64,000 nt of DNA from Candidatus Levyibacteriota bacterium (GTDB taxonomy: Bacteria; Patescibacteriota; Microgenomatia; Levybacterales; UBA12049). Made by a program: the position numbers and the translations under genes. Of the stretch, positions 23,473 to 62,849 are shown one piece after another. Under the pieces are notes generated by a model that saw only the letters and a list, made by a program, of their open reading frames with translations, made no database searches and was not told the DNA's origin. Each line of letters starts with the position of its first letter. Within the stretch, counting starts at the first letter, position 1. The stretch spans positions 2,209-66,208 of the forward strand of contig JACOXT010000003.1 in the NCBI GenBank assembly GCA_016182235.1. The letters run 5' to 3'.

Positions 23473-23490
23473 AAGGGGGGTGATAAAATT

Positions 23491-24402: not shown

Positions 24403-24486
24403 TTTAATCAGTGGTTGGTTTTAGAACAAAGGGAGGTTGCTGAAGTACAAAGCGCCTCCCCGGGACCCTGCGAGAGGTGAAGTTTG

Positions 24487-24575
24487 AATTGCGAAGTGCG
24501 AATTATGAAATCCAAAGAACTTCCGTATACCTCATAGCTCATACTTCATAATTCATAATTCATAATTCATAATTC
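24487..24575. repeat. Heptamer arrays upstream of sipW (aattgcg aagtgcg aattatg ... catagct catactt cataatt x4)
   Basis: 24487-24507 and 24533-24575. The two halves are partly reverse-complementary (gaattatgaa versus ttcataattc). The last unit ends 7 nt before the ATG at 24582. Confidence 0.7.
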
Positions 24576-24581
24576 TTTTCT

Positions 24582-25916: not shown

Positions 25917-25917
25917 T

Positions 25918-28700: not shown

Positions 28701-28794
28701 AATTTGAAATTTTCAATTTTTAATGAATTTTTAATATTTAAAATTTAAATTTTCATTTCAAATTTCGAATTTTAAATTGAAAATTATAGTTTAC
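28701..28794. repeat. AT-rich heptamer-periodic array filling the whole intergenic space
   Basis: aatttga aattttc aattttt aatgaat ttttaat atttaaa atttaaa ttttcat ttcaaat ttcgaat tttaaat tgaaaat. It is related to the arrays at 46500-46548 and 53007-53086. Confidence 0.7.
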
Positions 28795-37643: not shown

Positions 37644-37651
37644 GATTGGTA

Positions 37652-39049: not shown

Positions 39050-39051
39050 TA

Positions 39052-41020: not shown

Positions 41021-42007
41021 TTATCTAATGGAGTTTTTCATCTTCAGTAAGAACCAGCGGAGCTTGTCGACTATTTTATAAATTTCGTAGAAAAAGGGAT
41101 CGATGACAAGATCATAACTTCCGACAAACTCAACGAGTTCTCCTCCGTAGCCTTGTTTAAATCTATGAAATCCATACCACGGATCTTTAGGATCGGGATT
41201 TGGGCCAAGTGCGCCCCACATATCTAATTTTTTAAGTCCTAATTTTTTTCCAAAACGAATTGTTTCCCACATCATTAGGTTTGACGCCATTGTTTCGCGG
41301 TGTTCAGTGCTAGATGCGCCATAAGGATAGTAAAGAGTATCTTTGTAGACGAATACTATCCAGGCGACTAGAGTTTTTCCTTGATAGTTTGCAAGTAATA
41401 AATGTGAGGATAGTTGATTTATGATTAATGATTTATGATTAATGATTTTATGGGGAAAGGAGCTCCAGTGCAGCCTATGGTAGTTTTCGGTGTGGGCATA
41501 AAAACCCTGTCTTTTGGTTGTTTCTTGAGTAAGTTTGAGATAAGTTTCAAAAGCCTCATCAGAATTATCTTCGACAACTATAACTTTATGTTTTTGGGCA
41601 ACTTTTATATTGTAACGAGTCTTGGGGTGCATGTTTTTGAGTAATTCATCTTCTGATTTTGTCAGATCGAGGACGAAAGTATACTTGGTGAATAATGGAT
41701 GAAAAGAATTGCGAATTGCGAATTGCGAATTAAGTTCATAGTTCTGAGTTCTTTGGACATTTGGTTCAAGCTGGATGAAAATACATTTTTCTATTTTTCC
41801 AATCTCTTTAAGCTTGGAGAGCATTTCTTTAGTTGGCAATGGCCCTTTTGGTATATACCCAATAGTAAAAGGAGTATGAGGAATTTTATGGATAGTTATT
41901 AGTAAGTCATTTTCTCTTATTACTTTAACGCCTGTTTTTTTGCGAAACTCACCCCATTCTACAGACTGGAGAGGATGCACGGAAAGGTTGTTTGTATTCA
42001 TAACCAT
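41021..42007 (-). CDS. FemAB-family peptidoglycan bridge-formation aminoacyltransferase
   Basis: HPLQSVEWGEFRKKTG and GFHRFKQGYGG are present. It contains two heptamer-repeat segments (41414-41448 and 41707-41755). Confidence 0.7.
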   Translation of the reverse strand: MVMNTNNLSVHPLQSVEWGEFRKKTGVKVIRENDLLITIHKIPHTPFTIGYIPKGPLPTKEMLSKLKEIGKIEKCIFIQLEPNVQRTQNYELNSQFAIRNSFHPLFTKYTFVLDLTKSEDELLKNMHPKTRYNIKVAQKHKVIVVEDNSDEAFETYLKLTQETTKRQGFYAHTENYHRLHWSSFPHKIINHKSLIINQLSSHLLLANYQGKTLVAWIVFVYKDTLYYPYGASSTEHRETMASNLMMWETIRFGKKLGLKKLDMWGALGPNPDPKDPWYGFHRFKQGYGGELVEFVGSYDLVIDPFFYEIYKIVDKLRWFLLKMKNSIR

Positions 42008-43908
42008 TCTGATATTTTGCCTTCTGTCCTATTAAATGGTTTGAGATTTTGGCTTAAGACATTTTCTGGAAGCTCTAACAAAAAGCGAGAAACCGTATTG
42101 GATATTTTTTGGCCAAAAAATAGTCTTCTTGTGGCGTATGTTAAGAAAAGTTTTTGTTTGGCGCGAGTCATGCCAACATAACAAAGCCTTCTTTCTTCCT
42201 CGAGTTCATTTTTATCCATAAGAGATCTTGAGTGCGGAAAAAGTCCTTCTTCCATGCCAATCATAAATACATACGAGAATTCAAGCCCTTTTGCCGCATG
42301 AAGAGTCATTAAAGTTACAGCATTTTTTTTAAGCTCGCCGTTGGGTTTATCTGGCATATATTCCTGCTCAACTAATGAGACATTTTCCAAAAACTTCGTA
42401 AGATCGGAAAAATTAAGAGCAACGGAGCGAAGCTCTTTTATATTCTCAAGCCTTTGCCTCTCTTCCTCATCCTTTTCGTCATACATGGTAAGATAATCAG
42501 TTTCTTTTATCACTCTGTCCAAAAGTTCTAAAGTCGTCATTCTGGCTTGCCCAGAAGCTCCAATCGTTTTAAGAGATTCTGGATGCACTCGTTTCTCGCT
42601 TACCAGAATGACGCCTTGTTGAAATTCAAGAAATTTTTGTAGACGTCTTTTTCCCAATTTCTCAATCCTTTTTAAAGAAATTTTGTCTTTTTTGTTACTT
42701 AAGACTCTGAGAAACGCGAGTATATCTTTGATCTCTTTTCTTTCATAAAATCTTGTCCCGCCAATAAGAACATAAGGAATGCTATTATGCAGGAGGATTT
42801 CCTCTAAAACCCTTGATTGAGCATTGGTTCTATATAGTATTGAGATATCGGAGAGATTTAAATTATGATTAAGATTTAAGATTTGGTTTATAATATATTC
42901 GACTTCATCCTGCTCATTTCTTGCCTCATAAATTTCTACATCCTCGCCATGAGAATTCTCTGTCCAAAGTTTTAAGACCGGATGAGTTGTATTTTTGGAT
43001 ATCACTGAGGAGGCAGCATCTAGAATGTTTTGTGTTGAGCGATAATTTTGAGAAAGAGAAAATGTTTTTGTATTTTTGAAGTCGTCTTTAAATTTATTGA
43101 GATTGGTAAAATCTGCGCCGCGCCAGGAATAAATGCTTTGAGAAAAATCTCCAACGACACAGATATTATTCCATTTTTTTGCCAATAATTTTGTCAAAGC
43201 ATATTGCGCATGGTTAGTGTCTTGGTACTCATCGATAAGAATATATCTAAATTTGTTTTGGTATTTATCCAATACTTCACTGTATTTTTCAAAAAGATAG
43301 ACTGTTTTTAGCAGCAAATCATCAAAGTCAAGCGCGTGATTTTCCGCTAAAATTTTTTGATAGACTGGATAGACTTTGGCGACTTTTTCTTGAAAGTTAC
43401 CTCTGGCAAAACTTAAATACATAGAATCCGTTATAAGTTCGTTTTTCGCTTGCGATATGCTGACCAGGATAGATGATGGCTTGTAATCTTTTGTAGAGAT
43501 GTTGAGTATTTTCATAGCTTCTTTTATTGCGTCTAACTGATCTTGGGTATCGTATATCGTAAAATCCGAAGATATGCCAATATATTTACCATCAATCCTT
43601 AGTATTTTTGCGCAAAGAGAATGAAAAGTGGATATAGTTGGCTGTTGACTATTGGTTGTTAGTCGTTGGCTGTTGACTAGATATTTTTGGACGCGTTCTT
43701 TCATTTCCGAAGCCGCTTTATTCGTAAATGTGACCATAAGAATATTAAAAGGGTCTATATGTTTCTCTAAAATTAGATACATAACTTTGTATGTAAGAAC
43801 CCTTGTTTTGCCGGAACCTGCGCCAGCTAAAATTATATTTGGTCCCTCTGTTTGCAAAACCGCAAGTTTCTGCTCGGAATTTAAGTCCTTGAAGATATCT
43901 TTGTTCAT
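41998..43908 (-). CDS. pcrA: ATP-dependent DNA helicase PcrA/UvrD family
   Basis: LNSEQKLAV....GPNIILAGAGSGKTRVLT, TFTNKAA.EMKERV, TFHS, LIDEYQDTN, QNYRS and LMTLHAAKGLEF...VGMTRA are present. I prefer the start MNKDIF (43908) over the track start at 43944. Confidence 0.85.
   Translation of the reverse strand: MNKDIFKDLNSEQKLAVLQTEGPNIILAGAGSGKTRVLTYKVMYLILEKHIDPFNILMVTFTNKAASEMKERVQKYLVNSQRLTTNSQQPTISTFHSLCAKILRIDGKYIGISSDFTIYDTQDQLDAIKEAMKILNISTKDYKPSSILVSISQAKNELITDSMYLSFARGNFQEKVAKVYPVYQKILAENHALDFDDLLLKTVYLFEKYSEVLDKYQNKFRYILIDEYQDTNHAQYALTKLLAKKWNNICVVGDFSQSIYSWRGADFTNLNKFKDDFKNTKTFSLSQNYRSTQNILDAASSVISKNTTHPVLKLWTENSHGEDVEIYEARNEQDEVEYIINQILNLNHNLNLSDISILYRTNAQSRVLEEILLHNSIPYVLIGGTRFYERKEIKDILAFLRVLSNKKDKISLKRIEKLGKRRLQKFLEFQQGVILVSEKRVHPESLKTIGASGQARMTTLELLDRVIKETDYLTMYDEKDEEERQRLENIKELRSVALNFSDLTKFLENVSLVEQEYMPDKPNGELKKNAVTLMTLHAAKGLEFSYVFMIGMEEGLFPHSRSLMDKNELEEERRLCYVGMTRAKQKLFLTYATRRLFFGQKISNTVSRFLLELPENVLSQNLKPFNRTEGKISEWL
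42536..42612 (-). mobile_element. 77-bp gene-less derivative (MITE-like) of the GIY-YIG cassette, in frame within pcrA
   Basis: It has the same 10-bp TIRs (gtcattctgg 42536-42545, ccagaatgac 42603-42612) and the same internal ccagaatc / ttctggRcaagccagaat hairpin arms as 25918-26272. It is read through as VILVSEKRVHPESLKTIGASGQARMT. Confidence 0.7.
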
Positions 43909-43990
43909 AAGTATAATGAATGAGTCGTTTTGTAATTGTACCACATGATCTTTCGACTTTGCTCAGGATCATACTGAGGCAGTCGAACGT

Positions 43991-44680
43991 ATGAAAAAAG
44001 TTTTTATAGTTGCCAACTGGAAGTCGAATAAGATTACAAAAGAAGCCCGTAAGTGGATTGAAGATTTGTCGAATTCAAATTTTAATTTTATGGATTTTAA
44101 AGAAATTATTATATGTCCGTCATTTTCTCTTCTAAGTAGTGTTAAACTGGGAATCCAAGAGATCATAGGTCAAAAGTTAAAAATTAAAGTTGGAGCGCAG
44201 GATATTTCTCAGTTTGATGAAGGCGCATATACGGGAGGAGTTAATGGCAGGCAGATTAAAGAACTCGCTGATTATGTGATAGTTGGCCATTCAGAAAGAA
44301 GAAATAATTTTGGAGAAGACGGGAAGATAGTTAATGAAAAAATTTCTAAAGCGTTGAAATATAATTTAATTCCTATTCTTTGCGTTTCAGATATGAAGCA
44401 AATTCATGATTCTAGGTTAGTGATTCATAATTCAAATTTTATTGTCGCGTACGAGCCAACTTTCGCAATAGGAACGGGTACGCCTGACACGCCAGAAAAT
44501 GCAGATAAGATGGCAAAGAATATTAAAGAGATTTTAGGTGAGATACCAGTATTATATGGGGGAAGTGTAAGCAAGTTCAATATTAAAAGTTTTACTCAAA
44601 TGTCATACATAGATGGAGCGTTGGTTGGAAGGGCTAGTCTTGATGTCAAAGAGTTCGCAACGATCATTCAGAATGCGTAA
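43991..44680 (+). CDS. tpiA: Triose-phosphate isomerase
   Basis: VANWKSN, VGHSERR and YEPTFAIGTG are present. Confidence 0.85.
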   Translation: MKKVFIVANWKSNKITKEARKWIEDLSNSNFNFMDFKEIIICPSFSLLSSVKLGIQEIIGQKLKIKVGAQDISQFDEGAYTGGVNGRQIKELADYVIVGHSERRNNFGEDGKIVNEKISKALKYNLIPILCVSDMKQIHDSRLVIHNSNFIVAYEPTFAIGTGTPDTPENADKMAKNIKEILGEIPVLYGGSVSKFNIKSFTQMSYIDGALVGRASLDVKEFATIIQNA

Positions 44681-45761
44681 AAAAGTAATAGTAATAGTGC
44701 TTCTTTCCCTTTTTGTTGTTTTTTTTGGGAGACTTATCTTTGAGGCTATCAAATGGACACCAGTTTTACTTCAGTATTTCTTTCAAAAAGAAATTAACCT
44801 CAAAAAGACACAGGAAAGGGTAAATATACTATTTCTAGGCATTGGAGGAGGCAAACATGACGGTCCACTTCTAACTGATACTATCATTTATGCCTCGATT
44901 GACAAAGGACAACAAAAGGTAACGCTTATCTCGATTCCACGAGATTTATGGATTCCAGATTTAAAGGCAAAAATTAATACTGCCTATGCATTTGGCGAAG
45001 AGAGGAAGAAAAACGGCGGACTTATTCTTGCTAAAACAATTGTAGAAAGAATTTTCAATCAGCCTGTTGATTATATATTGCGCATTGATTTCAATGGGTT
45101 TATAAAGGCGATAGATATGATTGGAGGAATAGAGGTAGACGTTGAGAGGAATTTTGAAGATCGTGAGTATCCAATTTCTGGAAAAGAAACCGATACGTGT
45201 GGGTTTTCTGGTGAAGAATTTGAGCAGAGAGCAACGTCGTCAGCTATATTTGAGGCATTTCCATGTAGATATGAGCACATTGTATTTCAAGGAGGAATAC
45301 AACATATGAATGGAGAGACTGCCTTGAAGTTTGTCCGCTCACGTCATGCTCAGGGAACGGAAGGAACAGATTTCGCAAGAAGCAAACGTCAAGAAAAAGT
45401 AATTGAGGCATTCAAAGATAAAATGTTTTCCCTACCAACTCTTCTTAATCCTGGAAAACTCATAAGTTTGTACGATGTATTCCAAGATAGCATTCATACC
45501 GACATGCAGCAAAATGAATACGATGATTTCGTGAAGCTTGCAAAGGACTTGCAAGATGCAAAAATCAACAGCGTTTTATTTTTTTATACTGATCAATATT
45601 CAGAGGATCAAGGAATTTTTGTTAACCCACCAACATCAGAAATTTACAAAAATCAATGGGTTTTAATTCCTCGTAAAGGGTCTAATGACTTTTCAGAGAT
45701 TCAGAAGCTTGTGGATTGCGAGATAAATATTGGAAATTGCAACATAACCCCAACTCCTTAG
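44673..45761 (+). CDS. LytR-CpsA-Psr (LCP) family cell-envelope transferase
   Basis: A TM anchor is followed by VNILFLGIGGG......LTDTIIYASID......LISIPRDLWIP and RSRH. The start at MRKKV overlaps the tpiA stop by 8 nt. Confidence 0.7.
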   Translation: MRKKVIVIVLLSLFVVFFGRLIFEAIKWTPVLLQYFFQKEINLKKTQERVNILFLGIGGGKHDGPLLTDTIIYASIDKGQQKVTLISIPRDLWIPDLKAKINTAYAFGEERKKNGGLILAKTIVERIFNQPVDYILRIDFNGFIKAIDMIGGIEVDVERNFEDREYPISGKETDTCGFSGEEFEQRATSSAIFEAFPCRYEHIVFQGGIQHMNGETALKFVRSRHAQGTEGTDFARSKRQEKVIEAFKDKMFSLPTLLNPGKLISLYDVFQDSIHTDMQQNEYDDFVKLAKDLQDAKINSVLFFYTDQYSEDQGIFVNPPTSEIYKNQWVLIPRKGSNDFSEIQKLVDCEINIGNCNITPTP

Positions 45762-45765
45762 AATG

Positions 45766-48039
45766 TTAGTTGATTTTATAGATTTTTGTTTGATCACTTG
45801 AATAGACTATCTGCCCAAGTTTACTAAATTTTTCTTCAGAAAGAGTATATTTTTGTTTTTCTAGATCACCCACAAAAACTAAAGAAATCTTATATTTATC
45901 AATCAGTTTTTTTGCGATTTGCGAATCAACTGTTTCATAGAGAGTTTGAACTTCTTCGATTCTTGGCGATGGAATATCATAAGTTCCTCGCCAAAGCCAT
46001 TCATGGACGGACCATCCTAAAACTGTCGGAAGTCCAGTGTTTGTGGATACTCTGCCATAATCCGTATAAGAGTCACCTTGAGCTTCGAGAATTACGGGCT
46101 GTCCTTTGATATTTTTGTTTATCCATAAAATTGCTTCATAATCAGTTGGATACAGCGATTTAAGATATTTTGTTCCGTCAAGTCCGTGATAGGTTTTTAA
46201 ATCTCCAAAATAAGAATTGATTGCAAAGTAAGGATACACAAATACCAGAAATAATCCAATACTACCAATAACCCAATAAACAAATTTCCAATGAATAAAT
46301 TTACGATTTACGAATAGACGAATGATAGTATAACCAGAGGATAAAGAAAGCATAATAAAGGCTTGGTATACGAGTTTAAACATGGTATTTGCCCGGTAAT
46401 GTGCAGGGTAAATGTCCTTTACGTATATGAATTCTGGAATGATAATAAGAAGAGTGGAGAAAAATATGAGGACTGAAATGAATAAGCCAGATGGGCTTAA
46501 ATTTTCAATTTTGAATTTGAAATTTTTAATGAAATTTAAACAATTAAAACTCTTAAGTTTTTGAATTTTATTTTTGAAATTGAAACGAAGGAGTATAAAT
46601 ACAATCGCCCAAAAGTAAAAAAATCCATAAAGAATAAATAACTGCCAAATGGGCGAACGCTGACAATGATCTTTTTCGAAAAGAAAAGGACCAAGTCTTT
46701 CGATTTTTGTTAAGAATTCAGGTGCGCATAAAATGCCGATTCCGGAAGCAAAGGGCTTGAAGTTTAGATTAAATGGAAGAGAGAATAGAAAGAAACCAAA
46801 AACCAAAAACAAAATACTTAATACATAATATTTAATGCGCTTTGGATTTGAAGAATTGGTTGTGGATCTTAATTGAACAGTAAAGATTACAATTGCAGTA
46901 AGTAAAAGATAAATAAGTCCGTCCCATGCATTGGTCATGTACATGATTGCTAGAATGAATCCTAGCAATAAAATCCTAAATCCAAAATTAGAAATTCTAA
47001 ATAAATTCAAATAACCAAAACTATAATTATCAAAACGTTTTGAGCTTTGAAAATTTGAGCTTATTTGTGATTTGTGATTTGTGATTTGTGATTTTAAAAC
47101 TAGTGATAAAAGTATTGTTATGGTAAGTAGAACAAAAGGTATATCAAGTACGTGTCCATGTAAATCAGATACAACAAAGGAATATATTGGGAATTCATGA
47201 ATAGTATTTTCAATAAAACGAGTAGCATTAGGGTACCAGTAAGAATTTGGGAATTTATCTAGGGAGAATATTAATTGCCAGAATGGTACCGGCGATTCGT
47301 TTTCATAGGGCTTAAAAAAAGTGTAGACAGAGTGGAGATTGCCAGCAAAGGTAATTAGAAGCGCAGATAATAGACCTCCAATGAAAACTCTAAATCCGAG
47401 TTTCGATTTTAATAAAAATATTAAATTAGCTCCGATTGAAAATGCGCCTGCGAATGTAAATCCCGATATTGCAGCAAGCATAAGATTATATGTAATATTT
47501 GGTGGAAGGCTGGATAACTTAGTTAATACTGCTGTTGTCAAATGTCCAAAATAGTAGTAATTAATATATAGAGGCGTTAGCCACATGTCGGAAGGAGGGA
47601 AATACTCACTTCGCAGGATTGAATTTATAAAGCCAAAGTCCATATATTTTTCAAGACCATGAATATCGGGTCCATGGGCGTGAATATAAGACCAAAATAT
47701 TAGAACTGACAAAAAGATAATTTCTTCAAAGACAAATATCCTGAAAAAATACCCTAAAGATTTTATGAGATTAGAATATTTGAATACTAGGAAAATGTTT
47801 AAGATTAAGAATCCAACAATGGTTAATAAAATAGTAAGTACAGTAAAAGGTTGGATTCTCAAGATGCCTAAGATGAAAATTACATAACTGAGAAGGGCAA
47901 TACCTATTATTTTTGAAAATATATATCCCCTATCGGAGAGTGAATGAAATATTATACCTGTTAAGGGGAGAAAAATAATGCCAATAATAAAAATAATTAA
48001 CCACCATTGAAATATGTACAGCAAATCGGAAAAAGGCAT
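45766..48039 (-). CDS. DUF2298 / 'YYY' GT-C-like polytopic membrane protein
   Basis: GLEKYMDFGFINSILRSEYFPPSDMWL...INYYYFGH is the DUF2298 signature as I remember it. 757 aa. It carries three heptamer-repeat segments. Confidence 0.65.
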   Translation of the reverse strand: MPFSDLLYIFQWWLIIFIIGIIFLPLTGIIFHSLSDRGYIFSKIIGIALLSYVIFILGILRIQPFTVLTILLTIVGFLILNIFLVFKYSNLIKSLGYFFRIFVFEEIIFLSVLIFWSYIHAHGPDIHGLEKYMDFGFINSILRSEYFPPSDMWLTPLYINYYYFGHLTTAVLTKLSSLPPNITYNLMLAAISGFTFAGAFSIGANLIFLLKSKLGFRVFIGGLLSALLITFAGNLHSVYTFFKPYENESPVPFWQLIFSLDKFPNSYWYPNATRFIENTIHEFPIYSFVVSDLHGHVLDIPFVLLTITILLSLVLKSQITNHKSQISSNFQSSKRFDNYSFGYLNLFRISNFGFRILLLGFILAIMYMTNAWDGLIYLLLTAIVIFTVQLRSTTNSSNPKRIKYYVLSILFLVFGFFLFSLPFNLNFKPFASGIGILCAPEFLTKIERLGPFLFEKDHCQRSPIWQLFILYGFFYFWAIVFILLRFNFKNKIQKLKSFNCLNFIKNFKFKIENLSPSGLFISVLIFFSTLLIIIPEFIYVKDIYPAHYRANTMFKLVYQAFIMLSLSSGYTIIRLFVNRKFIHWKFVYWVIGSIGLFLVFVYPYFAINSYFGDLKTYHGLDGTKYLKSLYPTDYEAILWINKNIKGQPVILEAQGDSYTDYGRVSTNTGLPTVLGWSVHEWLWRGTYDIPSPRIEEVQTLYETVDSQIAKKLIDKYKISLVFVGDLEKQKYTLSEEKFSKLGQIVYSSDQTKIYKIN

Positions 48040-48040
48040 A

Positions 48041-48580
48041 TTAGGAAAACATGTCGGGAAGGACTTTAATTGCGAATAGATTTTTTTCGATTTTGCTTCT
48101 AACTTTCTTATTCAACCAGAAGAATTTTGTCTTAGGATTCTTTTTCGCCAAATATTTCAAAAGCTCTCGATCATCATCAACATAAAGATCAATTTTAAGT
48201 CTTTGGATAATATCATTTTTAAATAGATGGGTTTGTTGGTTACCGAAATTAAAGTATAAACCCTCAAAGAGTTTATACAGTTCGTGTTTCTGGACAAGTT
48301 TCTGGGTTTTGTTTTTTAGAAATCCAAACCTACCTGAGATTAAATAATGTTTATGCGTATTTTGCGACGCTAACTTTTTCATAAAATCAATGTTTGTTTT
48401 TATTGGCTGACGAAGTAATGGATGATGAATGAGTAAGCGAAGCAACTGTTCGGGTTTTTTAGGAATTCGATAAGAAAGTTTTCCGTTTGCTTTTTTCTTG
48501 TAAAACCTATCAATGATAAAATCCGGGAGAAAAAAGGGATAATCGATAAAGACTTTATCTAAGTCAAATCCAATATTCAT
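48041..48580 (-). CDS. HAD-like hydrolase (tentative)
   Basis: MNIGFDLDKV is a DxDx(T/V)-type motif I, and there is a late YVDDD. The assignment is weak. Confidence 0.4.
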   Translation of the reverse strand: MNIGFDLDKVFIDYPFFLPDFIIDRFYKKKANGKLSYRIPKKPEQLLRLLIHHPLLRQPIKTNIDFMKKLASQNTHKHYLISGRFGFLKNKTQKLVQKHELYKLFEGLYFNFGNQQTHLFKNDIIQRLKIDLYVDDDRELLKYLAKKNPKTKFFWLNKKVRSKIEKNLFAIKVLPDMFS

Positions 48581-48639
48581 AGAAATTATTTACTCTTGTA
48601 TTATAACTTGATTATAGATAAGATTGTAACACTATTTTC

Positions 48640-49680
48640 ATGAGAATTCTCATAACAGGCGGGGCAGGTTTTTTAGGTTTGCATCTTACTTCTTATCTTT
48701 CCAGAAAAAATCACAAACTTACTTTAGTAGACATCCAGGAATTTAGCAAAAATGAATATACAGCAGATTCCAAGAAAGAAGTTTGCGATGTGAGAAGCAA
48801 AAGACAGCTGGACAGCTTGATTAAAGGTCAAGATATTATTATTCATGCAGCTGCAGCTCTTCCGCTTTGGAAAAAAGAAGATATTTATACTACGAATATT
48901 GATGGAACAAAAAATGTTTTGGAGTTGGGGAAAAAACATAAAATAAAACGAGTTATTTATATTTCCTCAACTGCTGTCTATGGTGTTCCCAAAAAACATC
49001 CGATTTTGGAAGATGATCCAAGAGTTGGTGTTGGAGCTTATGGAAAAACAAAAATCTTGGCAGAAGATCTTTGTTTCGGAGAAATTAAAAAAGGATTGAA
49101 AGTAACTATCATCAGGCCTAAAACTTTTGTCGGAACCGGACGTTTGGGGGTTTTTGAGATTCTTTTTGATTGGATTCACGATGGAAAAAAAATTCCCGTT
49201 CTTGGAAATGGGGGAAATAGATATCAATTGTTAGATGTTGATGATTTGGTTGAGGCAATTTATCTATTTTCTCTAAATAATAAAAATTCATATAATGGTG
49301 CTTTTAATATTGGTGCTGAAAAGTTTGAAACAGTGAAAGCAGACCTTGAGGAGCTGTTTAGATTCGCAAAGTCGGGATCAGGAATTTTTCCAACCCCTGC
49401 TTTTATAGTAAAAAAAGCGCTATGGTTTTTTGAGAAGATCGGAGTTTCCCCTTTGTATCAGTGGGTTTATGATACAGCCGATAAAGATTCGTTTGTATCA
49501 ATAGAGAAGATTAAAAAAACACTAAATTGGAAACCAAGATATTCTAATACTGAAGCTTTGATTAAATCATATAGTTGGTATTTGAAAAATTACAAAAAAA
49601 TAAAATCAAGAACTACAGGAGTAACCCATACCACTGGATGGAAACAGGGGATACTAGCATTGTTTAAACGCTTTGCATAG
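48640..49680 (+). CDS. NAD-dependent epimerase/dehydratase (extended SDR)
   Basis: ILITGGAGFLG Rossmann motif, the YGKTK catalytic YxxxK, and SST upstream. Confidence 0.8.
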   Translation: MRILITGGAGFLGLHLTSYLSRKNHKLTLVDIQEFSKNEYTADSKKEVCDVRSKRQLDSLIKGQDIIIHAAAALPLWKKEDIYTTNIDGTKNVLELGKKHKIKRVIYISSTAVYGVPKKHPILEDDPRVGVGAYGKTKILAEDLCFGEIKKGLKVTIIRPKTFVGTGRLGVFEILFDWIHDGKKIPVLGNGGNRYQLLDVDDLVEAIYLFSLNNKNSYNGAFNIGAEKFETVKADLEELFRFAKSGSGIFPTPAFIVKKALWFFEKIGVSPLYQWVYDTADKDSFVSIEKIKKTLNWKPRYSNTEALIKSYSWYLKNYKKIKSRTTGVTHTTGWKQGILALFKRFA

Positions 49681-49684
49681 CAAT

Positions 49685-51250
49685 TTAATGTTTGACAAAT
49701 TTTCCTATAAAAATTTCTGCATTTCCATTGGGAATATAGATATTTTTTTGCTTAATAAATAAAAAATCGTCATATAGAGTTTTTGCCTCAGCAATGTCAT
49801 CTTGTCTAAGGGCAAAAAGTTGTCGTTTGTAAGAGTCAATAGATATGGGGTTTGTCATGACCACACATTTTTTACAATCGTGACTCACGTTATAAAAATT
49901 GAGAAGTTCTTCTCCACGGTTAAATCGATGAGTAATGAGGAGCTGATCATATTGACCTTCTTGCTTTTTAAATTCTTCCAAAATACTTCTATATCCATAT
50001 TGCCATCCCCAATAATCGGAAGAATATAAAGGATATTTTGTAAAATATAAGTGGAGATAATATATAGAAGAAAAAACAATGATTATTAATATACCAAGTG
50101 TTATAATGCGATTAAAGAGTTTTCTAATTCTTGAGAGGAAACTAAATATATAAAATAGTCCTACCGCTGAAATAATTTGGAAAGGAACTACGCCAACAAT
50201 AGATCGCGTTGCCTGAGCACTTTCGGCTATAGTAAACATACTTCCAACGGGATACAGAATTAACCATAGCATAAGCGTAGAGATGAGCCTTTTTTCTGGT
50301 TTAAAGGAAAGATATATAAAACCAAGAATTAGTAAGGGTAATTGAAAAAGATGCATTTCGCCTAATCCTCTGACAGAATGCCTTGCGATAAATTGTCCTG
50401 GCATGTCTATATCGCCTTTTAAAAAAAGGAAATCTAAAGAAAAATGACTCAAGTAATTGTTTAAAATATGAGAAACTATAGTGTGATCTTGGGGTGGTTG
50501 AGAGAATATGCTTACTTGTTGCCAACGTGAAAGAATTGGAGAGGCGAAGAGATTATAAATAAATGGCAGTAATGAAAAAAGTGCCAATAGAGCACATAAG
50601 AATATTATTCTTTTAGTCTTTAGAAAAGTTTTATCATAAATCATGAATAGCAAACTCATAAAAACAGCTATAAAGATTTTTGCAGCACTATAGCTATAGA
50701 ATGCAGTCGCAAAAAGAAGAATACTTAGGAATAGTAATTTTAGATTTACTCTCGATTTGATAAAAAAATAAAGACCTGCGGTTGTAAAAAATACAAACGG
50801 AGATTGCTCAAAAGCAATCCTACTAATATGTACATGCCAGGGAGAGATTGCAAGAAAAAAAGAAGAGAAAACAGCCATCTCCTTTTTATGTTTATTGGCG
50901 TTAAGTAGTTTTTTTGTTAATAAATAAATAAAAATTATAGTACCTGTTCCGTATAGCGCAGCAGGCAATCTAGTGGAAAATTCATTTAATCCAAAAATAT
51001 AAATAAAAGGGATTGCTGAGTAAATATATACTGGGCCTTTATAGTCATCAAGAGATCGGAAGAAAAAAGGAAATGATTTGCGATATTCATCTTTTCCTGT
51101 TGCAAGAACAGAATATGCATTAAATCCAATTGATGCTTCATCCGCAAAAAATCCAGAAGGAACTTCGGCGAGACGATACACACGCAGCGAGAGACCTAAA
51201 AATACTATAAATATTAAAAGTATAGTGTGGAAATTAATATGATATCTCAC
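49685..51250 (-). CDS. GT-C fold membrane glycosyltransferase (GT39/ArnT/PMT-like)
   Basis: 521 aa and polytopic. The first-loop acidic motif is GFFADEAS, and a soluble C-terminal domain is present. Confidence 0.6.
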   Translation of the reverse strand: MRYHINFHTILLIFIVFLGLSLRVYRLAEVPSGFFADEASIGFNAYSVLATGKDEYRKSFPFFFRSLDDYKGPVYIYSAIPFIYIFGLNEFSTRLPAALYGTGTIIFIYLLTKKLLNANKHKKEMAVFSSFFLAISPWHVHISRIAFEQSPFVFFTTAGLYFFIKSRVNLKLLFLSILLFATAFYSYSAAKIFIAVFMSLLFMIYDKTFLKTKRIIFLCALLALFSLLPFIYNLFASPILSRWQQVSIFSQPPQDHTIVSHILNNYLSHFSLDFLFLKGDIDMPGQFIARHSVRGLGEMHLFQLPLLILGFIYLSFKPEKRLISTLMLWLILYPVGSMFTIAESAQATRSIVGVVPFQIISAVGLFYIFSFLSRIRKLFNRIITLGILIIIVFSSIYYLHLYFTKYPLYSSDYWGWQYGYRSILEEFKKQEGQYDQLLITHRFNRGEELLNFYNVSHDCKKCVVMTNPISIDSYKRQLFALRQDDIAEAKTLYDDFLFIKQKNIYIPNGNAEIFIGKFVKH

Positions 51251-53006
51251 GTTTAAAAATCATCACTTTTGGATGGTCATAAACTGTAAAAGATTCATCG
51301 GCGCCTTGGTCATTAATTGGAATATTTAATAATGGGATTGTTGGATAGATGGCAAATTCAGCAACTTTTTTAAATCCTAACTCACTATTGAAAAGTCTTT
51401 CGTAATAATCTGCAGTTTGAGCATAACATCTTCCTGATGGAAGGTTATTGCAATTTGTTAATTTTTGTAAAGGTACATAAAGACGATTAGAAGCGACGAT
51501 GATATAGTCTGTTGTTTCAAGTTTCTGACTAATTCCTCCCCATTTTTCTTGCGTATCCGGATCATACAAAGGAAGACTTATTATATTATATTTTTCTCCT
51601 CCAAAAAGAGGAAGACCGTCGTCCCAATGTTCAATTGCTAATGTTTTTCCATTTGGTAGATTTTGGTTTATCCAATTTGAAGCTAAGACTCGAGTGTTGG
51701 GTTTGGTATAAATATTCATAAAGGATAAAGTCCAAAGCATTACAGAAGTATAAAGTATTAAGTATAAAGTATTAAGTATAGATTTGTTCTTTATAAAAGA
51801 TTTAAGTTTTGGATTAATTAAATTTACTGCAAATATAGCTGCAAAAAGACAGAACAGTGGATAGAGGGGGAGCATGTAGCGCATCCAGCCAACTGCAAAT
51901 TTCCCAACGATGAAAAAATAGGTAAAAAGAAAAACGAGAAGGATTAGTTTTTGATTCCATTTTCTGTCCACCTCGGAGGAGTCGAAGTCGTTGCTTCGCC
52001 ACCATCCGAGGTGTTTACGTATTGAACTAAAACTAATATATACGATCCCCAAAAGAGAAAGTGTCGCAAGCAAGGGTCCTTGGCCCCAGAGGAATACATT
52101 TTTTAATTCATGGAAATATGGGATTTTGCCGACGTACTGCAAGGTGTATGGAAATGTAAAGGCGTCGTATGTCATCTGCCGCTGCTGCATGCTTTGACGC
52201 CAAAATTCTTGAAAATCAATAATTGCGTAAGGTTGGAGAATAACAAACGTAATAATGGTCGCAACTGCAATTGTAATTCCATCGAAAATGAGCCGTTTAA
52301 GAAATCTAGGAATATGCGGAAACCAGATATGGGGCTTATGAGGTTGTTTTATGAAAATAAGTATAAAATCAACAGTAATGGCGACAAGAATTGCGATGAT
52401 AAGAGGAATAGCGCTTATTTTTGTTACTAATGATAATCCAAAAAATACCCCGACCAAAATTGCGTTGGGGAAAGAAGGCTTCTCGTAAAATCTTAGCAAT
52501 TGATAAAGAGTAAGTAGAATAAAAAATGTCAATAGAGTATCAACAGCATAAAAATGCGCTGCTTGAATTGGGAATACGGAAATTGCATAGAAAAAAGAAG
52601 CAATAAGCCCTGCGGTTTGGTTCATGAGTTTTTTCGTAAGTATGAAAACTACAAAAATAGTTCCAATGTCGGCGATCGCCGAAATAGCTCTTCCAACTAG
52701 ATTTATTTTTTCGTACGAGATGTATAAAGGATCAAAATTTGCTAAAAAAGAGGCGACAGCTTTAAGAAGATAAAGTGGAAAATTCCCATAGGCAAAAAAA
52801 TGAGGATTTAAAGGACTTGATGGGCTTAAAAATTCATCGAAACTTTTGGGAAATTCTATAGGTGTTGCAAACATGACAATTGCCCGTTCATCCGGATGCA
52901 GGTGGTGGGCTTGGTCCCAGTTAATGCCATAAAATCTTAGAAGTCCTCCTATAACAATTATTGTGAGTAAATACAACAAGTGTGGTTTTTTAAATAAAGT
53001 CATCAT
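51234..53006 (-). CDS. GT-C fold membrane glycosyltransferase (GT39-like), paralogue 2
   Basis: 590 aa. The first loop is HLHPDERAIV and the C-terminus is ESFTVYDHPKVMIF. It is a paralogue of 53087-54847. Confidence 0.6.
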   Translation of the reverse strand: MMTLFKKPHLLYLLTIIVIGGLLRFYGINWDQAHHLHPDERAIVMFATPIEFPKSFDEFLSPSSPLNPHFFAYGNFPLYLLKAVASFLANFDPLYISYEKINLVGRAISAIADIGTIFVVFILTKKLMNQTAGLIASFFYAISVFPIQAAHFYAVDTLLTFFILLTLYQLLRFYEKPSFPNAILVGVFFGLSLVTKISAIPLIIAILVAITVDFILIFIKQPHKPHIWFPHIPRFLKRLIFDGITIAVATIITFVILQPYAIIDFQEFWRQSMQQRQMTYDAFTFPYTLQYVGKIPYFHELKNVFLWGQGPLLATLSLLGIVYISFSSIRKHLGWWRSNDFDSSEVDRKWNQKLILLVFLFTYFFIVGKFAVGWMRYMLPLYPLFCLFAAIFAVNLINPKLKSFIKNKSILNTLYLILYTSVMLWTLSFMNIYTKPNTRVLASNWINQNLPNGKTLAIEHWDDGLPLFGGEKYNIISLPLYDPDTQEKWGGISQKLETTDYIIVASNRLYVPLQKLTNCNNLPSGRCYAQTADYYERLFNSELGFKKVAEFAIYPTIPLLNIPINDQGADESFTVYDHPKVMIFKREISY

Positions 53007-53086
53007 TAATTTATAATTTTAAATTTACAATTTTCATTGAATTTTCAATTACTTAATTTTCAAATTTCAAATTGAAATTTTTTAGA
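53007..53086. repeat. AT-rich heptamer-periodic array with 17-nt perfect palindrome
   Basis: It fills the gap between two GT-C genes. aatttcaaattgaaatt at 53063-53079 is a perfect palindrome. The tttcaaatttc..aaattgaaa core is shared with 28755-28785. Confidence 0.65.
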
Positions 53087-54847
53087 TTAAATCTCGAGGA
53101 ATCTTGCATATTCTTCTCTGTTTAATTGTTTCTTTTTCTCAAAAGTCCTAATAACTGGGTGGTCAAAAACGCTCCATGTTTCCTCAGCTCCTTCGTCGGG
53201 AAACTCTATATTAAATCCAAATAAAGACAATTTTGGATACGAATGGAATTCTTCGATTTGTTCAAAGCCCAGTTGTCCATTAAATAACGCGTCGTAGAAT
53301 CGCGCGGTTTTTGGATAAAGGTTCCGGAGCCTCTGATGATTGTAGAATATTCGTCTGCTTTGTACAAGAAAATAATCTGATGAGTATAAAGCGTCGACAA
53401 CTTTTTCTCTTATTGAGGAATTTTCCTCTAAGGCATAAAAATCAATCGATGTCCGCTGAAAGTTTCCATGAAGAGGCAAATCAACAGTGTTGCCTCCCTC
53501 TACTAAAAAATTTGAATCTGGTTTGACATGAGATTCAAGCCATTTGGATGCAGTTATACGAATATCCGGATTTGTATAGACTGAAAAAAAAGCCATTGCC
53601 CAAAGCATTGTGAATAAGATTATTATAGCTGTTGCTAAATAAGTAAAAACTTTCATTTTGTTTGTCAGCTCATATAGGAAATAGGCTGCAAATATAGAAA
53701 AAAATGGAAATGTTGGAGCAATAAACCTAGTCCATTTCGCAAACAGGAAAGCGCTGGGAATAAATAGGGAAAGAAATGCAACTATAAGAAGGACATAAAT
53801 TGTTTTATTGTTAAATTGCTTCATTGTTTCATTACTAACTTCTCTACTACTCGTATGTGGAGAAACGCTTGAATGATATAAAATTTTAATGGCTTTTATG
53901 ACAAGATGGATAAACCCTAAGACTCCAAATATAAAAAGACTAGGCCCTAAGGCGTAAGGAAAAATCTTCTCAAATTGAAATAAAACCGGAGCAGTGTCAA
54001 TAAATTGCCTTGTGTAGAAAACTGAGATTTTTCCAATAGCCAGTCCTCCTTCATAATCTAGGTTTGATTTGAAGGCTTGGTAGTCAAGAAAAACATATTG
54101 TGCCACAAGGGCAAAGGTAACAACAGCAACGATCAGACTTATTAGTATTAATCCGATAAATTTTAATATAGATCTAAAAGTGCTTTTTAAGCGCGAAGAG
54201 TTTCTAGAATATGATTTAAGTAGAATTGCTACTGTTAACGGAAAAAGAAAAACTATAGAGCTTATCTTTACTCCTAGGGAAAACCCTAAAGCAATAGAAG
54301 TTGATACTAGATAGAGAATTATATTATATCTAATAAATTTCATCATAAAAAAAAGAGATAGGAATAGAAAGAAGATTAGCGCTGACTCAGGAGTGGCAAA
54401 ATGAGCTTGCTGGATGAGTCCAGGAGTAAGAACGACAAAAAAAGCTGCAAGATACGAAAATCGCTTGTTCATTAAGACTCTTGAGATCTTATAGATGAGT
54501 AGAATAGTTAGGGTAGAAAATAATGCAGAATAAAACCGACCTATCAGGAAAGAGCTAGGAACTATAAACTGCGAACTAAGAACTGAGGACGCGGATTTTA
54601 ATAACTCTTGCGTAAAATAAATTAAATAGATTGTTACTGTTCCATACGAGAAAAAATGCGGATGCATTTGAGACGGGTATGATAGCTGATTAACAGCGGA
54701 TACGATATGATATTCATCGGGATGACTGTACAATCCTTCTCCCCAATCGAGTTTATAGAAACGAAGAATTCCGCTAAAAGCTACAAGGAGGATTAATAAA
54801 ATATATATCTCGTATCTTTTAAAGAATTGCATGATCGCAATAGCCAA
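53087..54847 (-). CDS. GT-C fold membrane glycosyltransferase (GT39-like), paralogue 3
   Basis: 586 aa. The first loop is YSHPDEYHIV and the C-terminus is ETWSVFDHPVIRTF. Confidence 0.6.
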   Translation of the reverse strand: MAIAIMQFFKRYEIYILLILLVAFSGILRFYKLDWGEGLYSHPDEYHIVSAVNQLSYPSQMHPHFFSYGTVTIYLIYFTQELLKSASSVLSSQFIVPSSFLIGRFYSALFSTLTILLIYKISRVLMNKRFSYLAAFFVVLTPGLIQQAHFATPESALIFFLFLSLFFMMKFIRYNIILYLVSTSIALGFSLGVKISSIVFLFPLTVAILLKSYSRNSSRLKSTFRSILKFIGLILISLIVAVVTFALVAQYVFLDYQAFKSNLDYEGGLAIGKISVFYTRQFIDTAPVLFQFEKIFPYALGPSLFIFGVLGFIHLVIKAIKILYHSSVSPHTSSREVSNETMKQFNNKTIYVLLIVAFLSLFIPSAFLFAKWTRFIAPTFPFFSIFAAYFLYELTNKMKVFTYLATAIIILFTMLWAMAFFSVYTNPDIRITASKWLESHVKPDSNFLVEGGNTVDLPLHGNFQRTSIDFYALEENSSIREKVVDALYSSDYFLVQSRRIFYNHQRLRNLYPKTARFYDALFNGQLGFEQIEEFHSYPKLSLFGFNIEFPDEGAEETWSVFDHPVIRTFEKKKQLNREEYARFLEI

Positions 54848-61068: not shown

Positions 61069-61097
61069 TTCCTTTGGTTTTCTTATACTACGTGATA

Positions 61098-62849
61098 ATG
61101 AATCAAGCACATATTCGGAATTTTGCGATTATTGCTCATGTGGATCATGGCAAATCAACTTTGGCAGATAGGCTTTTGGAATTGACCAATACTGTTTCAA
61201 GGGAGAAAATGGAAGAGCAATTTCTTGATCGAAATCCAATAAGCAGAAGACGAGGAATTACAATAAAACTCGCTCCTGTTCGCATGAACTATACGCTAGA
61301 CGCTAATAACTATACGCTAAACTTAATTGACACTCCCGGACATGTTGATTTTTCCTATGAGGTTTCTCGCACTCTAGCTGCATGTGAAGGCGCGATATTG
61401 CTGGTTGATGCAACCCAAGGAATTCAGGCGCAAACTGTTGCCCATTTTAGAGAAGCAAAAAGGGAAAATTTAACTTTCATACCAGTTATAAATAAAATTG
61501 ATTTACCAAGCGCTCAAACGGAATTGGTCGCTAATGAGCTAATTGAGACTTTTGGATTTAGGAAAGAGGAGATCTTTCGGATCTCTGCCAAGACCGGTAA
61601 AAATGTTGATCTGTTACTATCTGAAATTGTCAAAAGAATACCTTCACCCCTTGGGCAGAAAGAAAAACCCCTTAGATGTTTAATTTTTGATGCAGTTTAT
61701 GATGAATTCAAGGGTGTAGTTGCCTACGTTAGGGTTGTAGATGGAGAGCTTGGAAAAGGAGATAGAGTTAGATTTTACCAAAATAATTTGGAATCTGAAG
61801 TGACAGATCTTGGATATTTTTCTCCGCATTTAGTTTCATCCAACAATTTATCAACTGGTGAGATTGGCTATATTATTACAGGCGTCAAAGATATTAGGAA
61901 GGTACGTGTAGGCGACACCATCACTGCGGAAGATGGAAGATGGAAAGTGGAAAATTCGGAATTTGAGCCCCTGCCGGGATATGAGATTCCTAAGCCGATG
62001 GTGTTTTTCGGAATGTACCCTAAGAGCACAAATGATTATATTTATTTAAGGGAATCTTTAGGCAAACTTACTTTAAATGATACTGCACTGACATATACTG
62101 AAGAATATTCTTCTTATTTGGGGAGTGGATTTAGGGTAGGATTTTTGGGACTTTTGCATGCGGAGATTGTTAAAGAAAGGATAAAGCAAGAATTTAATTT
62201 AGATGTTTTATTAACTATGCCCCAAGTTCTATACGAAAAAAGGGATGATGGTGTAGTCACAGAGCCATATATGAAGCTTACTGTTTATACACCCAAAGAA
62301 TATGTCGGTCCGGTTATGAATATATGCCAGGGGAAATTAGGTATCCTTTTAGATTTGAATTATCATGAAAGTTTTGCTGTTTTGTCCTATGATATGCCCT
62401 TCTCTATGTTTGTTAGGGGACTTTCCTCTGATCTAAAATCGGTATCGAATGGCTTTGCGAGCATTGATTATATGTTGACTTCTTATAAAGAAGCGGATTT
62501 AGCTAAACTTGAAATAAGAGTAAACGACGTTCCTATAGATGTTTTATCAGAGCTTGTTTATAGAGATGAATCGATACATATTGCCCGAGAAAAAGTGGAG
62601 AGGCTTAAGAACTCACTCCCAAGACAGCAGTTTAGGCAAATTATACAAGGATTAGTTAATGGAGATATTGTTGCCCGATCCGAAATTCCGCCTTTTAGAA
62701 AAGATGTTTTGCAAAAAATGTCTGGAGGAGATCGTAGAAGGAAAGATAAGCTTTTGGAAGCTCAGAAAAAAGGAAAATCCCGCATGATCGCGCATGCCAA
62801 AATTTCCATTCCCCAAGAAGCCCTACTTTCGATGATAGAGGGGAATTGA
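61098..62849 (+). CDS. lepA: Translation elongation factor 4
   Basis: IRNFAIIAHVDHGKSTLADRLL, DTPGHVDF and NKID are present, and the LepA C-terminal domain ends KLLEAQKKGK. The start is at MNQAHIRNF. Confidence 0.9.
   Translation: MNQAHIRNFAIIAHVDHGKSTLADRLLELTNTVSREKMEEQFLDRNPISRRRGITIKLAPVRMNYTLDANNYTLNLIDTPGHVDFSYEVSRTLAACEGAILLVDATQGIQAQTVAHFREAKRENLTFIPVINKIDLPSAQTELVANELIETFGFRKEEIFRISAKTGKNVDLLLSEIVKRIPSPLGQKEKPLRCLIFDAVYDEFKGVVAYVRVVDGELGKGDRVRFYQNNLESEVTDLGYFSPHLVSSNNLSTGEIGYIITGVKDIRKVRVGDTITAEDGRWKVENSEFEPLPGYEIPKPMVFFGMYPKSTNDYIYLRESLGKLTLNDTALTYTEEYSSYLGSGFRVGFLGLLHAEIVKERIKQEFNLDVLLTMPQVLYEKRDDGVVTEPYMKLTVYTPKEYVGPVMNICQGKLGILLDLNYHESFAVLSYDMPFSMFVRGLSSDLKSVSNGFASIDYMLTSYKEADLAKLEIRVNDVPIDVLSELVYRDESIHIAREKVERLKNSLPRQQFRQIIQGLVNGDIVARSEIPPFRKDVLQKMSGGDRRRKDKLLEAQKKGKSRMIAHAKISIPQEALLSMIEGN

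Follow-up and report, generated by a model that had tools for sequence, protein, structure and literature searches.

The question raised by this locus is why DNA repeats with a unit of 7 nucleotides (nt), which is not a multiple of three, are found in frame inside protein-coding genes, and by what process they came to be there. The locus is a stretch of 64 kb, referred to here as the window, from a metagenome-assembled genome (MAG) of Candidatus Levybacteria, a tiny-genome groundwater bacterium of the Candidate Phyla Radiation (CPR), with a GC content of ~0.35. A preliminary description of this DNA had listed five heptamer arrays within its envelope genes, numbered here (1) in a FemAB gene, (2) and (3) in a DUF2298 gene, and (4) and (5) in the second and third of its GT-C glycosyltransferase genes (GT-C2 and GT-C3; Table 1). 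That bacteria carry heptanucleotide repeats has been known for decades. Arrays were called by a diagonal match score, in which positions i and i + k are compared (match +1, mismatch -2) and runs above a cut-off are taken as arrays, and beside it by Tandem Repeats Finder (TRF), and gene identities were taken from Pfam. Null expectations were obtained from Markov models of orders 1, 3, and 5 and from a codon shuffle that retains the codon usage of each gene.

The excess of period-7 arrays in the window is real and statistically secure. At a score of at least 12, nine arrays were observed at k = 7 against about 0.05 expected under the Markov models of orders 1, 3, and 5, and with Markov order 3 the counts were 17 against 0.87 at a score of at least 9 and 21 against 3.2 at a score of at least 8. 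The codon shuffle gave nearly the same picture, with 17 arrays against 0.99 expected and a shuffle maximum of 7 (score of at least 9), nine against 0.05 (score of at least 12), and 12 against 0.34 in a further count. The excess is limited to period 7 and its harmonics 14 and 21: six arrays against none expected were seen at k = 14 for a score of at least 12, and the remaining periods from 4 to 16 yielded 0-2 arrays each. This amounts to about one array per 3.5 kb, so the earlier estimate of about 19 arrays in 64 kb was accurate (17-21 counted versus about 1-3 expected), and the judgment that this lies far above chance held against composition-matched and codon-matched nulls alike. All five arrays were found where the preliminary description had put them, in frame within genuine genes according to Pfam and with the quoted translations correct, and both TRF and the diagonal score confirmed that the 7-nt units run head to tail. 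Two amendments are needed to that list. Perfect repetition, at period 7 or at period 14, is seen in arrays (1), (3), and (4), whereas array (5) is a degenerate remnant that falls under the diagonal cut-off and is reported by TRF at period 14. Arrays (2) and (3), which had been treated as separate, are the two arms of one 142-nt palindromic element. The range covered by the five also takes in a clean second array in FemAB (41706-41731) and several more in DUF2298 (46500-46525 and 46793-46836). Rfam and tRNA scans gave no matches.

For comparison, 80 related loci were collected, each consisting of a DUF2298 gene with 10 kb on either side (1.37 Mb in total; loci and contigs are designated by L numbers). 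Even the closest relatives have a DUF2298 protein only about 65% identical to that of the window. These loci contained 221 arrays at k = 7, compared with 4-30 at k = 4-13. Nineteen genomes, including that of the window, form one contiguous block on the DUF2298 tree with 5-16 arrays per ~20 kb each, and a few further array-rich patches lie outside this block. Many Levybacteria with equal GC content (0.30-0.41) have no arrays at all, and therefore base composition cannot explain the trait; array richness behaves as an inherited property of a lineage. Many of the Levybacteria MAGs (L001, L003, L008, L010, L012, and more) carry record titles such as "uncultured Gammaproteobacteria bacterium," Lysobacterales, or Limnocylindrales. 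Their membership in Levybacteria is clear from protein identity and synteny, and because they bear the titles of other taxa, deposited record names are unreliable for taxon counts.

Across the arrays, 95 canonical unit types were found. The units of 193 arrays could be aligned to the pattern A-A-A-T-(T/C)-N-N with an information content of 4.9 bits, compared with 3.46 ± 0.09 for random genomic heptamers. Mismatches within arrays gather at positions 6 and 7 (13 and 8%, versus 3-6% elsewhere; chi-square P = 7e-10), for which mutation bias suffices as an explanation because these are the positions that bear G/C. The constant core of 3-4 nt with variable remaining positions, first noted from the five arrays, thus recurs in the larger set. 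Array length does not follow a geometric distribution. It has a sharp peak at 31-33 nt, which corresponds to four units plus 3-5 nt or about 4.4 units (9 arrays had 24 nt, 42 had 31 nt, and 5 had 38 nt), and the peak persists after duplicates are removed and within individual unit types. The spread of lengths seems wider among the 20 arrays that are clearly non-coding (17-49 nt), a number too small to decide the matter. A reading-frame filter, by which three units are added to one ancestral unit (10 + 21 nt), could account for the length mode. The suggested comparison of lengths in coding sequence with multiples of 21 nt gave mixed results. On one side are the 31-33-nt peak and exact three-unit differences between orthologues at GT-C3 and LepA, seen among genomes that include no near-identical strain: L001 and L009 have two units instead of five at the GT-C3 site and are shorter by exactly 21 nt (7 residues), and the LepA loops of L034 and L056 are likewise shorter by exactly 21 nt. 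A general excess of 7-residue indels was seen neither when multiple alignments were used nor when pairwise alignments were limited to the arrays.

Most arrays are genic (open reading frames (ORFs) contain 11 of the 17 in the window and 212 of all 233), even though intergenic DNA is enriched ~5-fold, with six of 17 arrays in 7.5% of the DNA (P = 0.001). The predominantly intergenic placement of the long simple sequence repeats (LSSRs) of other bacteria and of the short tandemly repeated repetitive (STRR) sequences of cyanobacteria is therefore not what Levybacteria arrays show. To call them a feature of envelope genes was too narrow because LepA, a PfkB-family kinase, UvrD, and MurJ carry them as well. 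Within proteins, orthologue alignments place the arrays in variable loops or in one transmembrane segment, most of them in loops rich in indels. An AlphaFold model of DUF2298 is of poor quality (mean predicted local distance difference test (pLDDT) of 58, and below 50 at residues 317-358 of the 142-nt insert, as in much of the protein) and is weakly informative on this point; it sets the predicted element peptide in a low-confidence stretch flanked by helices, a position that would suit a loop but carries little weight. The host genes stay open through the arrays. With up to nine arrays, DUF2298 is still uninterrupted in 79 of 80 genomes, the same is true of FemAB in 53 of 53, and no frameshifted copy was found among 79 DUF2298, 53 FemAB, 43 GT-C2, and 43 GT-C3 genes; two split genes were found, both in array-poor genomes. 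Because all genes are open through the arrays, translation of the arrays is favored, and bypass and frequent OFF states are disfavored. Untranslated or bypassed inserts were considered and are unlikely, given genes that are open and in frame in 79 of 80 genomes.

Stop codons bear on orientation. In 125 of 177 coding arrays, a stop trinucleotide is present in the consensus unit as read on the antisense strand, compared with 66 of 177 on the sense strand, and in these 66 arrays the variant units hold the stop out of frame, as in FemAB. Among non-coding arrays, 13 of 20 have stops on both strands, compared with 18% of random heptamers.

Conservation of arrays is low in general, with a mean identity of 0.455 versus 0.618 for the host genes and with the partner gapped at the array in 46% of orthologue pairs, as expected for tolerated loop insertions. 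General conservation was thus not found among the arrays, and only a subset is ultra-conserved. Eleven percent of aligned array pairs are at least 90% identical, at a gene identity of 0.68-0.72. Array (3) shares 31 of 32 nt with its orthologue in L003 (gene identity 0.68). In array (4), all 30 nt in the codon alignment with L001 are identical, including all ten third positions, in a gene that is 0.69 identical overall and 0.50 identical at third positions; over its whole 34 nt, identity is 1.0 to L001 and 0.94 to L011 (gene identity 0.60). Similarly, an insert of the form (AATTTTC)4-spacer-(ATTTCAA)4 is ~100% identical in L002, L004, L005, and L008, the flanks of which differ at most synonymous sites. 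Given the same residue, codon identity is 0.775 in shared arrays versus 0.509 expected, a measure that is partly circular because both genomes must have an array at the site.

The reading that we prefer, at about even confidence, is a lineage-specific expansion of heptanucleotides that is passed through a filter of reading-frame selection, with a coding palindrome of the kind known from Rickettsia as an additional product. The arrays would be tandem repeats formed in the DNA itself, of one broad type with the LSSRs of other bacteria and the STRR sequences of cyanobacteria. A short AAAT(T/C)NN-like seed would be reiterated by strand slippage or by another heptamer-specific duplication, and arrays would arise by this route anywhere in the genome of one Levybacteria clade, with selection retaining only the harmless ones. 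Retained genic arrays would be those in which the unit has no in-frame sense stop, the net change is a multiple of three (21 nt, three units), and the site is a permissive loop or hydrophobic segment, and the survivors would be translated as peptides with a 7-residue period. Arrays with stops on both strands would survive only between genes, often as inverted pairs, and two inverted arrays with a central palindrome (46962-47103) would have become a small dispersed coding element. Both slippage as the generating step and the neutrality of the encoded peptides are what we infer. Repeated birth of arrays de novo is indicated because orthologous loops carry unrelated units (GGAAGAT versus ATTTCAA in LepA, and three different units in FemAB). 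Several points weigh against this account. Some arrays are 93-100% identical between genomes saturated at synonymous sites; a sharp mode of 31-33 nt over 95 unit types is not predicted by unconstrained slippage; 7-residue indels are not in general excess; a change in copy number has not been directly observed; and the size of the unit, 7 nt, is left without explanation.

The 142-nt element in DUF2298 bears on a competing account. It has an RNA fold z-score of -3.8, with none of 200 shuffles equally stable, and it is missing from about one third of DUF2298 homologues. BLAST and an nhmmer profile place its family at 21 sites in 13 genomes, with a single copy in the window. Copies are found in the same DUF2298 loop, in a second DUF2298 loop, in FemAB (L002 and L001), and elsewhere, so that non-orthologous sites are included, and genic copies keep one reading frame with the peptide pattern K(S/P)(Q/E)I..NSKRF..NLFRISNFEFRI. 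When 15 copies were aligned, the arms paired in 68.9% of cells, compared with 29-55% when the partner was slid by 1-3 columns, and 499 of 500 shuffles had a lower covariation score. At three pairs, two subfamilies show a switch between CG and GC or between CG and UA, as compensatory changes do, and each heptamer has one position that is systematically mismatched as C.A, which would be G.U if the opposite strand were read. A peptide search with the element consensus gave no candidates. Small, bounded by terminal inverted repeats, and dispersed in one frame, the element is, by analogy, best classed as a small dispersed coding palindrome comparable to the Rickettsia palindromic elements (RPEs). 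In two relatives (L013:11085-11120 and L032:1800-1830), its 3' arm is broken or replaced by G/C-rich palindromic sequence, for example GGCCTCGCCCCGAGGCTCGGCCCGAGGGG, possibly a different small element that was inserted within this one.

These features raise the possibility, which we consider doubtful, that all arrays derive from small mobile palindromic elements similar to MITEs (transposable elements of the miniature inverted-repeat type) or RPEs, with terminal inverted repeats of ~4.5 heptamers. Solitary arrays would then be half or decayed elements, and an enzyme acting in trans would read AAAT(T/C) at a spacing of 7 bp. Beyond the dispersal and arm covariation of the 142-nt family, this would fit the fixed arm length of ~31 nt with its shared core, as a recognition site might have, the high identity of some copies between species, and the intergenic pairs at 24479-24575 and 28701-28792, which are also inverted and have arms of 31-34 nt. 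Over all loci, an inverted partner within 170 nt scored at least 14 for 44 of 193 arrays, compared with 18-20 in controls. Palindromic pairing is thus enriched but is not the rule: three quarters of arrays, including those in FemAB and the GT-C genes, have no detectable inverted partner. Moreover, this is a low-copy family (one in 64 kb), and 95 unit types would demand very many such families. Target-site duplications cannot be read because "empty" orthologous sites still bear partial arrays, BLAST searches of plasmids and phages with the 142-nt element gave no match, and no transposase, HUH, or reverse-transcriptase gene was seen in the window by Pfam and family scans, including the best 25 of 46 families.

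The ultra-conserved arrays suggest nucleotide-level constraint or homogenization, which a purely neutral view does not explain. Homogenized heptamers would have no silent sites because each base is read in turn as codon position 1, 2, and 3, and this is one possible cause, with DNA-level constraint and recent spread as alternatives. It is conceivable, but again rather improbable, that a dedicated clade-specific factor, which could be a protein for DNA binding or transposition or else an unusual activity in replication or repair, writes or maintains AAAT(T/C)NN arrays of ~4.5 heptads. In that event, with similarly limited likelihood, the arrays would be fixed-size functional or selfish DNA units that are near-identical from species to species at some sites, variable in their number of units within populations, and only secondarily translated.

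Assemblies of the source population bear on a third explanation, that the arrays are contingency loci. Logan assemblies (k = 31) of SRR12113430 and SRR12113420 contain contigs that are 100% identical to the window (L081-L092), and these break inside perfect repeats at 24548-24572, at 35178 (a period-9 repeat, where both assemblies end), at 41443, and at 47066-47093. Thus, four of 16 break sites (three heptamer arrays and the period-9 repeat) fall in 0.26% of the sequence (binomial P of about 9e-8). At the intergenic hairpin, contigs end at 24568 or 24572 and the next begins at 24548; in array (3), contigs from both sides stop within the array (47066 and 47090/47093) and overlap by 25-28 nt. 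Imperfect arrays are crossed without a break. Since no 30-mer occurs twice in a perfect run of 32-37 nt, a break requires extra k-mers in the reads. These k-mers could come from population variants in unit number or from identical arrays at other loci or in co-occurring relatives, and what makes the latter source plausible is that 22 of 116 long arrays have a 31-mer in common with an array from a different genome. Contigs of both runs also break at the same non-repeat positions, 62133 (the start of L081 and L082) and 42806/42808, a hint that the source population has strain-level variants, or drops in coverage, with no relation to the arrays.

Changes of ±1 unit that shift the frame and toggle FemAB, DUF2298, and the GT-C glycosyltransferases, with phase variation of the envelope as the outcome, would suit a non-triplet unit, the presence of perfect arrays of 4-5 units in envelope genes, and assembly breaks in perfect arrays, as copy-number variants would cause. 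We think this unlikely. No frameshifted allele appears in any consensus, and no alleles with frame-switching unit numbers were found among the genes compared. The arrays are in mid-gene, short, and often imperfect, they are equally present in housekeeping genes such as LepA, and the breaks are equally well explained by identical 31-mers in co-occurring relatives.

An equally slim chance attaches to the idea, drawn from analogy, that the arrays would serve as cooperative protein-binding platforms with one heptad per subunit, translation being a by-product. The modal ~4.4 heptads would match the at least four contiguous heptads required for function of the omega protein (PMC9499535), direct and inverted arrangements are both present, and a shared core with two free positions is what a binding site might look like. 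Array (3), read as AATCACA x4, fits the omega consensus WATCACW exactly, array (1), AATCAT(T/A), is one mismatch away, and some arrays are conserved at the nucleotide level beyond protein need. The size of the arrays thus agrees with the runs of heptads bound by omega, a ribbon-helix-helix (RHH) protein. Against this account, the single consensus WATCACW does not recur: units are diverse, and AAATCAC occurs in only three of 193 arrays. Most arrays are poorly conserved or missing in orthologues, mutation bias explains the variable G/C-bearing positions, and the density and intragenic location are unlike those of known operators or centromeres. No RHH, ParA, or ParB gene was seen in the window in the same scans (best 25 of 46 families included).

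Finally, selection for 7-residue peptides, or chance and composition in an AT-rich genome (GC about 0.35), can be given next to no credence even though some encoded segments are hydrophobic and conserved (ILNTLYLILYT): heptad selection on proteins is ruled out by an exact period of 7 that lies in the DNA, with each unit read in all three frames and arrays also intergenic, and chance or AT-richness is ruled out by the Markov and codon-shuffle nulls, which give about 1 array and not 17, and by equal-GC sister genomes, which have none.

Table 1. Period-7 arrays and associated palindromes of the window (window coordinates; a dot in the strand column marks intergenic features)
Feature	Position	Strand	Description
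Array (1)	41415..41448	-	FemAB gene (41021-42007); perfect period-14, 34 nt (TRF)
Second FemAB array	41706..41731	-	GAATTGC x3.7, perfect; NSQFAIRNS; other variable loop; absent from the preliminary description
Palindromic element	46962..47103	-	142 nt, imperfect, in frame in DUF2298 gene (45766-48039); encodes KSQITNHKSQISSNFQSSKRFDNYSFGYLNLFRISNFGFRI
Element arms	46962-47022 and 47043-47103		61 nt each, 70% complementary
Element central palindrome TCAAAACGTTTTGA	47030-47043		
Array (2)	46975..47015	-	Imperfect ATTTAGA ATTTCTA ATTTTGG ATTTAGG (coding strand); 3' arm of element; encodes NLFRISNFGFRI
Array (3)	47063..47094	-	ATTTGTG x4.6, perfect; 5' arm of element on coding strand
DUF2298 second inverted pair	46500..46585	-	Array 46500-46525 (AATTTTC AATTTTG AATTTGA), partner arm 46564-46585
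Two abutting DUF2298 arrays	46793..46836	-	AAACCAA x3, AATACTT-type x3.4
Array (4)	51746..51780	-	GT-C/PMT_2 gene 2 (51234-53006); perfect period-14
Array (5)	54552..54586	-	GT-C/PMT_2 gene 3 (53087-54847); five degenerate units; encodes SSVLSSQFIVPSS
LepA array	61928..61953	+	LepA/EF4 gene (61074-62849); GGAAGAT GGAAGAT GGAAAGT GGAAA; EDGRWKVEN
PfkB-family array	33571..33605	-	Gene 33283-34221; imperfect ATACTTN; variable loop
Intergenic hairpin	24479..24575	.	Arm arrays GAAGTTT GAATTGC GAAGTGC GAATTAT GAA, 35-nt loop, (TTCATAA)x4.4
Intergenic AT-rich palindrome	28701..28792	.	AATTTNN heptamers

Among the individual loci, array (1) is composed of TGATTTA and TGATTAA (x2.4 of the 14-mer) and encodes HKIINHKSLIINQ in a hypervariable loop of FemAB. 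This loop is rich in indels and carries different heptamers in orthologues, (AAAATCA)n in L017 and (AAAATGA)n in L007, and in L002 it holds a full palindromic element. At the FemAB loops, L043, L010, L009, L031, L038, and L019 have in-frame inserts rich in G/C. The insert peptides in these genomes and in L001 include RQAQGKL, RFAQGKL, and CLPAGKA (the last in L001), and their sequences suggest a second family of short-repeat DNA that may be translated in Levybacteria proteins. In DUF2298, array (3) reads (AAATCAC)n on the coding strand and encodes SQITNHKSQI, and the second inverted pair, which has 22-nt arms that are 77% complementary, lies in a loop encoding FNCLNFIKNFKFKIEN.

Array (4) is composed of AAGTATA and AAGTATT (x2.5 of the 14-mer) and encodes part of the hydrophobic segment ILNTLYLILYT, which is common to several GT-C2 orthologues. 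The units of array (5) on the coding strand are TCAGTTC, TTAGTTC, GCAGTTT, ATAGTTC, and CTAGCTC, with the pattern [C/T]AGTT[C/T]N; at the same site, L002 has a clean array of five units (TCAATTC, TTAATTC, TGAACTC, TTAATTC, and TTAATTC). The LepA loop carries (GAAGATG)x4 in L003 and an unrelated (ATTTCAA)-type array in L008. At 59646-59662 in the window, the MurJ array AAATTGG AAATTGG AAA encodes the conserved KIGNWK with no insertion, and MurJ of L043 has an exact 7-residue insertion, LSRGKAG, at this point.

Outside the ORFs, the intergenic hairpin has 31-nt arms that are 77% complementary. A small gene of the 23S_rRNA_IVP family (an Avd-like four-helix bundle; 23059-23433) is flanked by a heptamer array and, at its opposite end, by a period-14 hairpin (23041-23072 and 23438-23468). 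A diversity-generating retroelement was considered here and rejected, there being no reverse transcriptase nearby. Downstream of a short ORF, the period-9 repeat at 35174-35204, AATTAGGTC x3.4, pairs with 35133-35146 as a hairpin. The region 22000-26000 has a GC content of 0.42-0.43 versus ~0.35 and encodes VWA/camelysin-like and LTD-domain secreted proteins and a stand-alone GIY-YIG protein (25968-26276); it is possibly acquired DNA. Tandem paralogues are present at 36576-40371, where three PEP-utilizers-domain genes lie beside a PPDK_N gene, and at 49685-54847, where three consecutive GT-C/PMT_2 glycosyltransferase genes lie beside DUF2298, LCP, and FemAB genes. The tandem-paralogue neighborhood is syntenic in most related loci. 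Exact-protein look-up of UvrD, FemAB (with two start codons), and GT-C1 of the window gave no record.

These observations are of interest for several reasons. Repeats of this type are known chiefly from cyanobacterial intergenic DNA, and here they lie within genes. Membrane enzymes, and even LepA, can gain peptide loops from repeat DNA with a non-triplet unit and still remain unbroken. Which arrays survive appears to be sorted by stop codons and by the 21-nt rule, and a coding palindrome built of arrays parallels the RPEs in an unrelated lineage with small genomes. The bacterial bias toward 7-nt repeats becomes testable because the trait is present or absent among close relatives, and a comparison of gene content between the clade and relatives of equal composition could identify the maker of the repeats. 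On the practical side, the arrays break short-read assemblies and inflate the apparent variability of loops in CPR protein families. Were a dedicated factor to exist, it would represent a new way for repeat DNA to reshape loops in the proteins of ultra-small bacteria, those of the envelope and those with housekeeping roles, and the clade would offer a natural presence/absence system for the cause of the 7-nt bias.

No report linking heptamer repeats to CPR bacteria or Patescibacteria was found in the literature searched. Comparison is made here with systems from other bacteria. According to Mrazek (2007), as cited in PMC4679880 and PMC4692102, heptanucleotides are the commonest class of 5-11-nt repeats in many bacteria, and slippage over a polymerase footprint has been proposed for them. 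Levybacteria arrays resemble these LSSRs in the over-representation of 7-nt units, the sporadic occurrence restricted to lineages, and the presence of many units per genome. LSSRs are reported to be mainly intergenic, with units that are multiples of three when in genes (PMC4679880), whereas Levybacteria arrays are mostly genic and read through. They also differ in their narrow modal length of 31-33 nt and in having a CPR host.

Units of STRR sequences and of GGGAATC-type repeats are G/C-rich or form G-quadruplexes, and their arrays are intergenic and can be much longer. Levybacteria units, in contrast, follow AAAT(T/C)NN, number 4-5 per array, and are largely coding. Common to the cyanobacterial STRR sequences of Calothrix and Nostoc, the GGGAATC/GGGGAYT repeats of Xanthomonas and Nostoc, and the present arrays are tandem 7-nt units at many loci with occasional inverted pairs (PMC4692102). 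With the contingency loci of Haemophilus and Neisseria, the arrays have in common perfect short non-triplet repeats in envelope-related genes; they differ in showing no ON/OFF alleles in 80 genomes and in being short, in mid-gene, and present in housekeeping genes too.

Omega, an RHH protein of the ParB role from plasmid pSM19035, binds at least four contiguous 7-bp WATCACW repeats in direct or inverted orientation (PMC9499535). Contiguous 7-bp repeats in both orientations, and the fit of array (3) to WATCACW, make up a resemblance only to the parS sites of this plasmid, which are plasmid promoters beside par genes with one consensus, whereas Levybacteria arrays are chromosomal and mostly intragenic, with many units. 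The 142-nt element can be likened in form to the RPEs (PMC10969869): both are palindromic, ~100-150 nt long, and dispersed in one frame among unrelated genes, and both would add a peptide to a tolerated part of a protein in a host with a small genome. The arms of the element are heptamer arrays, however, its copy number per genome appears low, and most arrays in the window lie outside any such element. The TAACTGA repeats of marine Beggiatoaceae, some cyanobacteria, and Bacteroidetes (PMC4679880) are likewise heptamer direct repeats, in 2-6 copies. They have one unit and are mostly found directly upstream of start codons, whereas Levybacteria have ~95 units and no preference for start codons. 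A minority of TAACTGA repeats are found in ORFs, in the stop-free orientation that encodes repeats of the 7 residues LSVISYQ (PMC4679880), and in both systems orientation is limited by stop codons.

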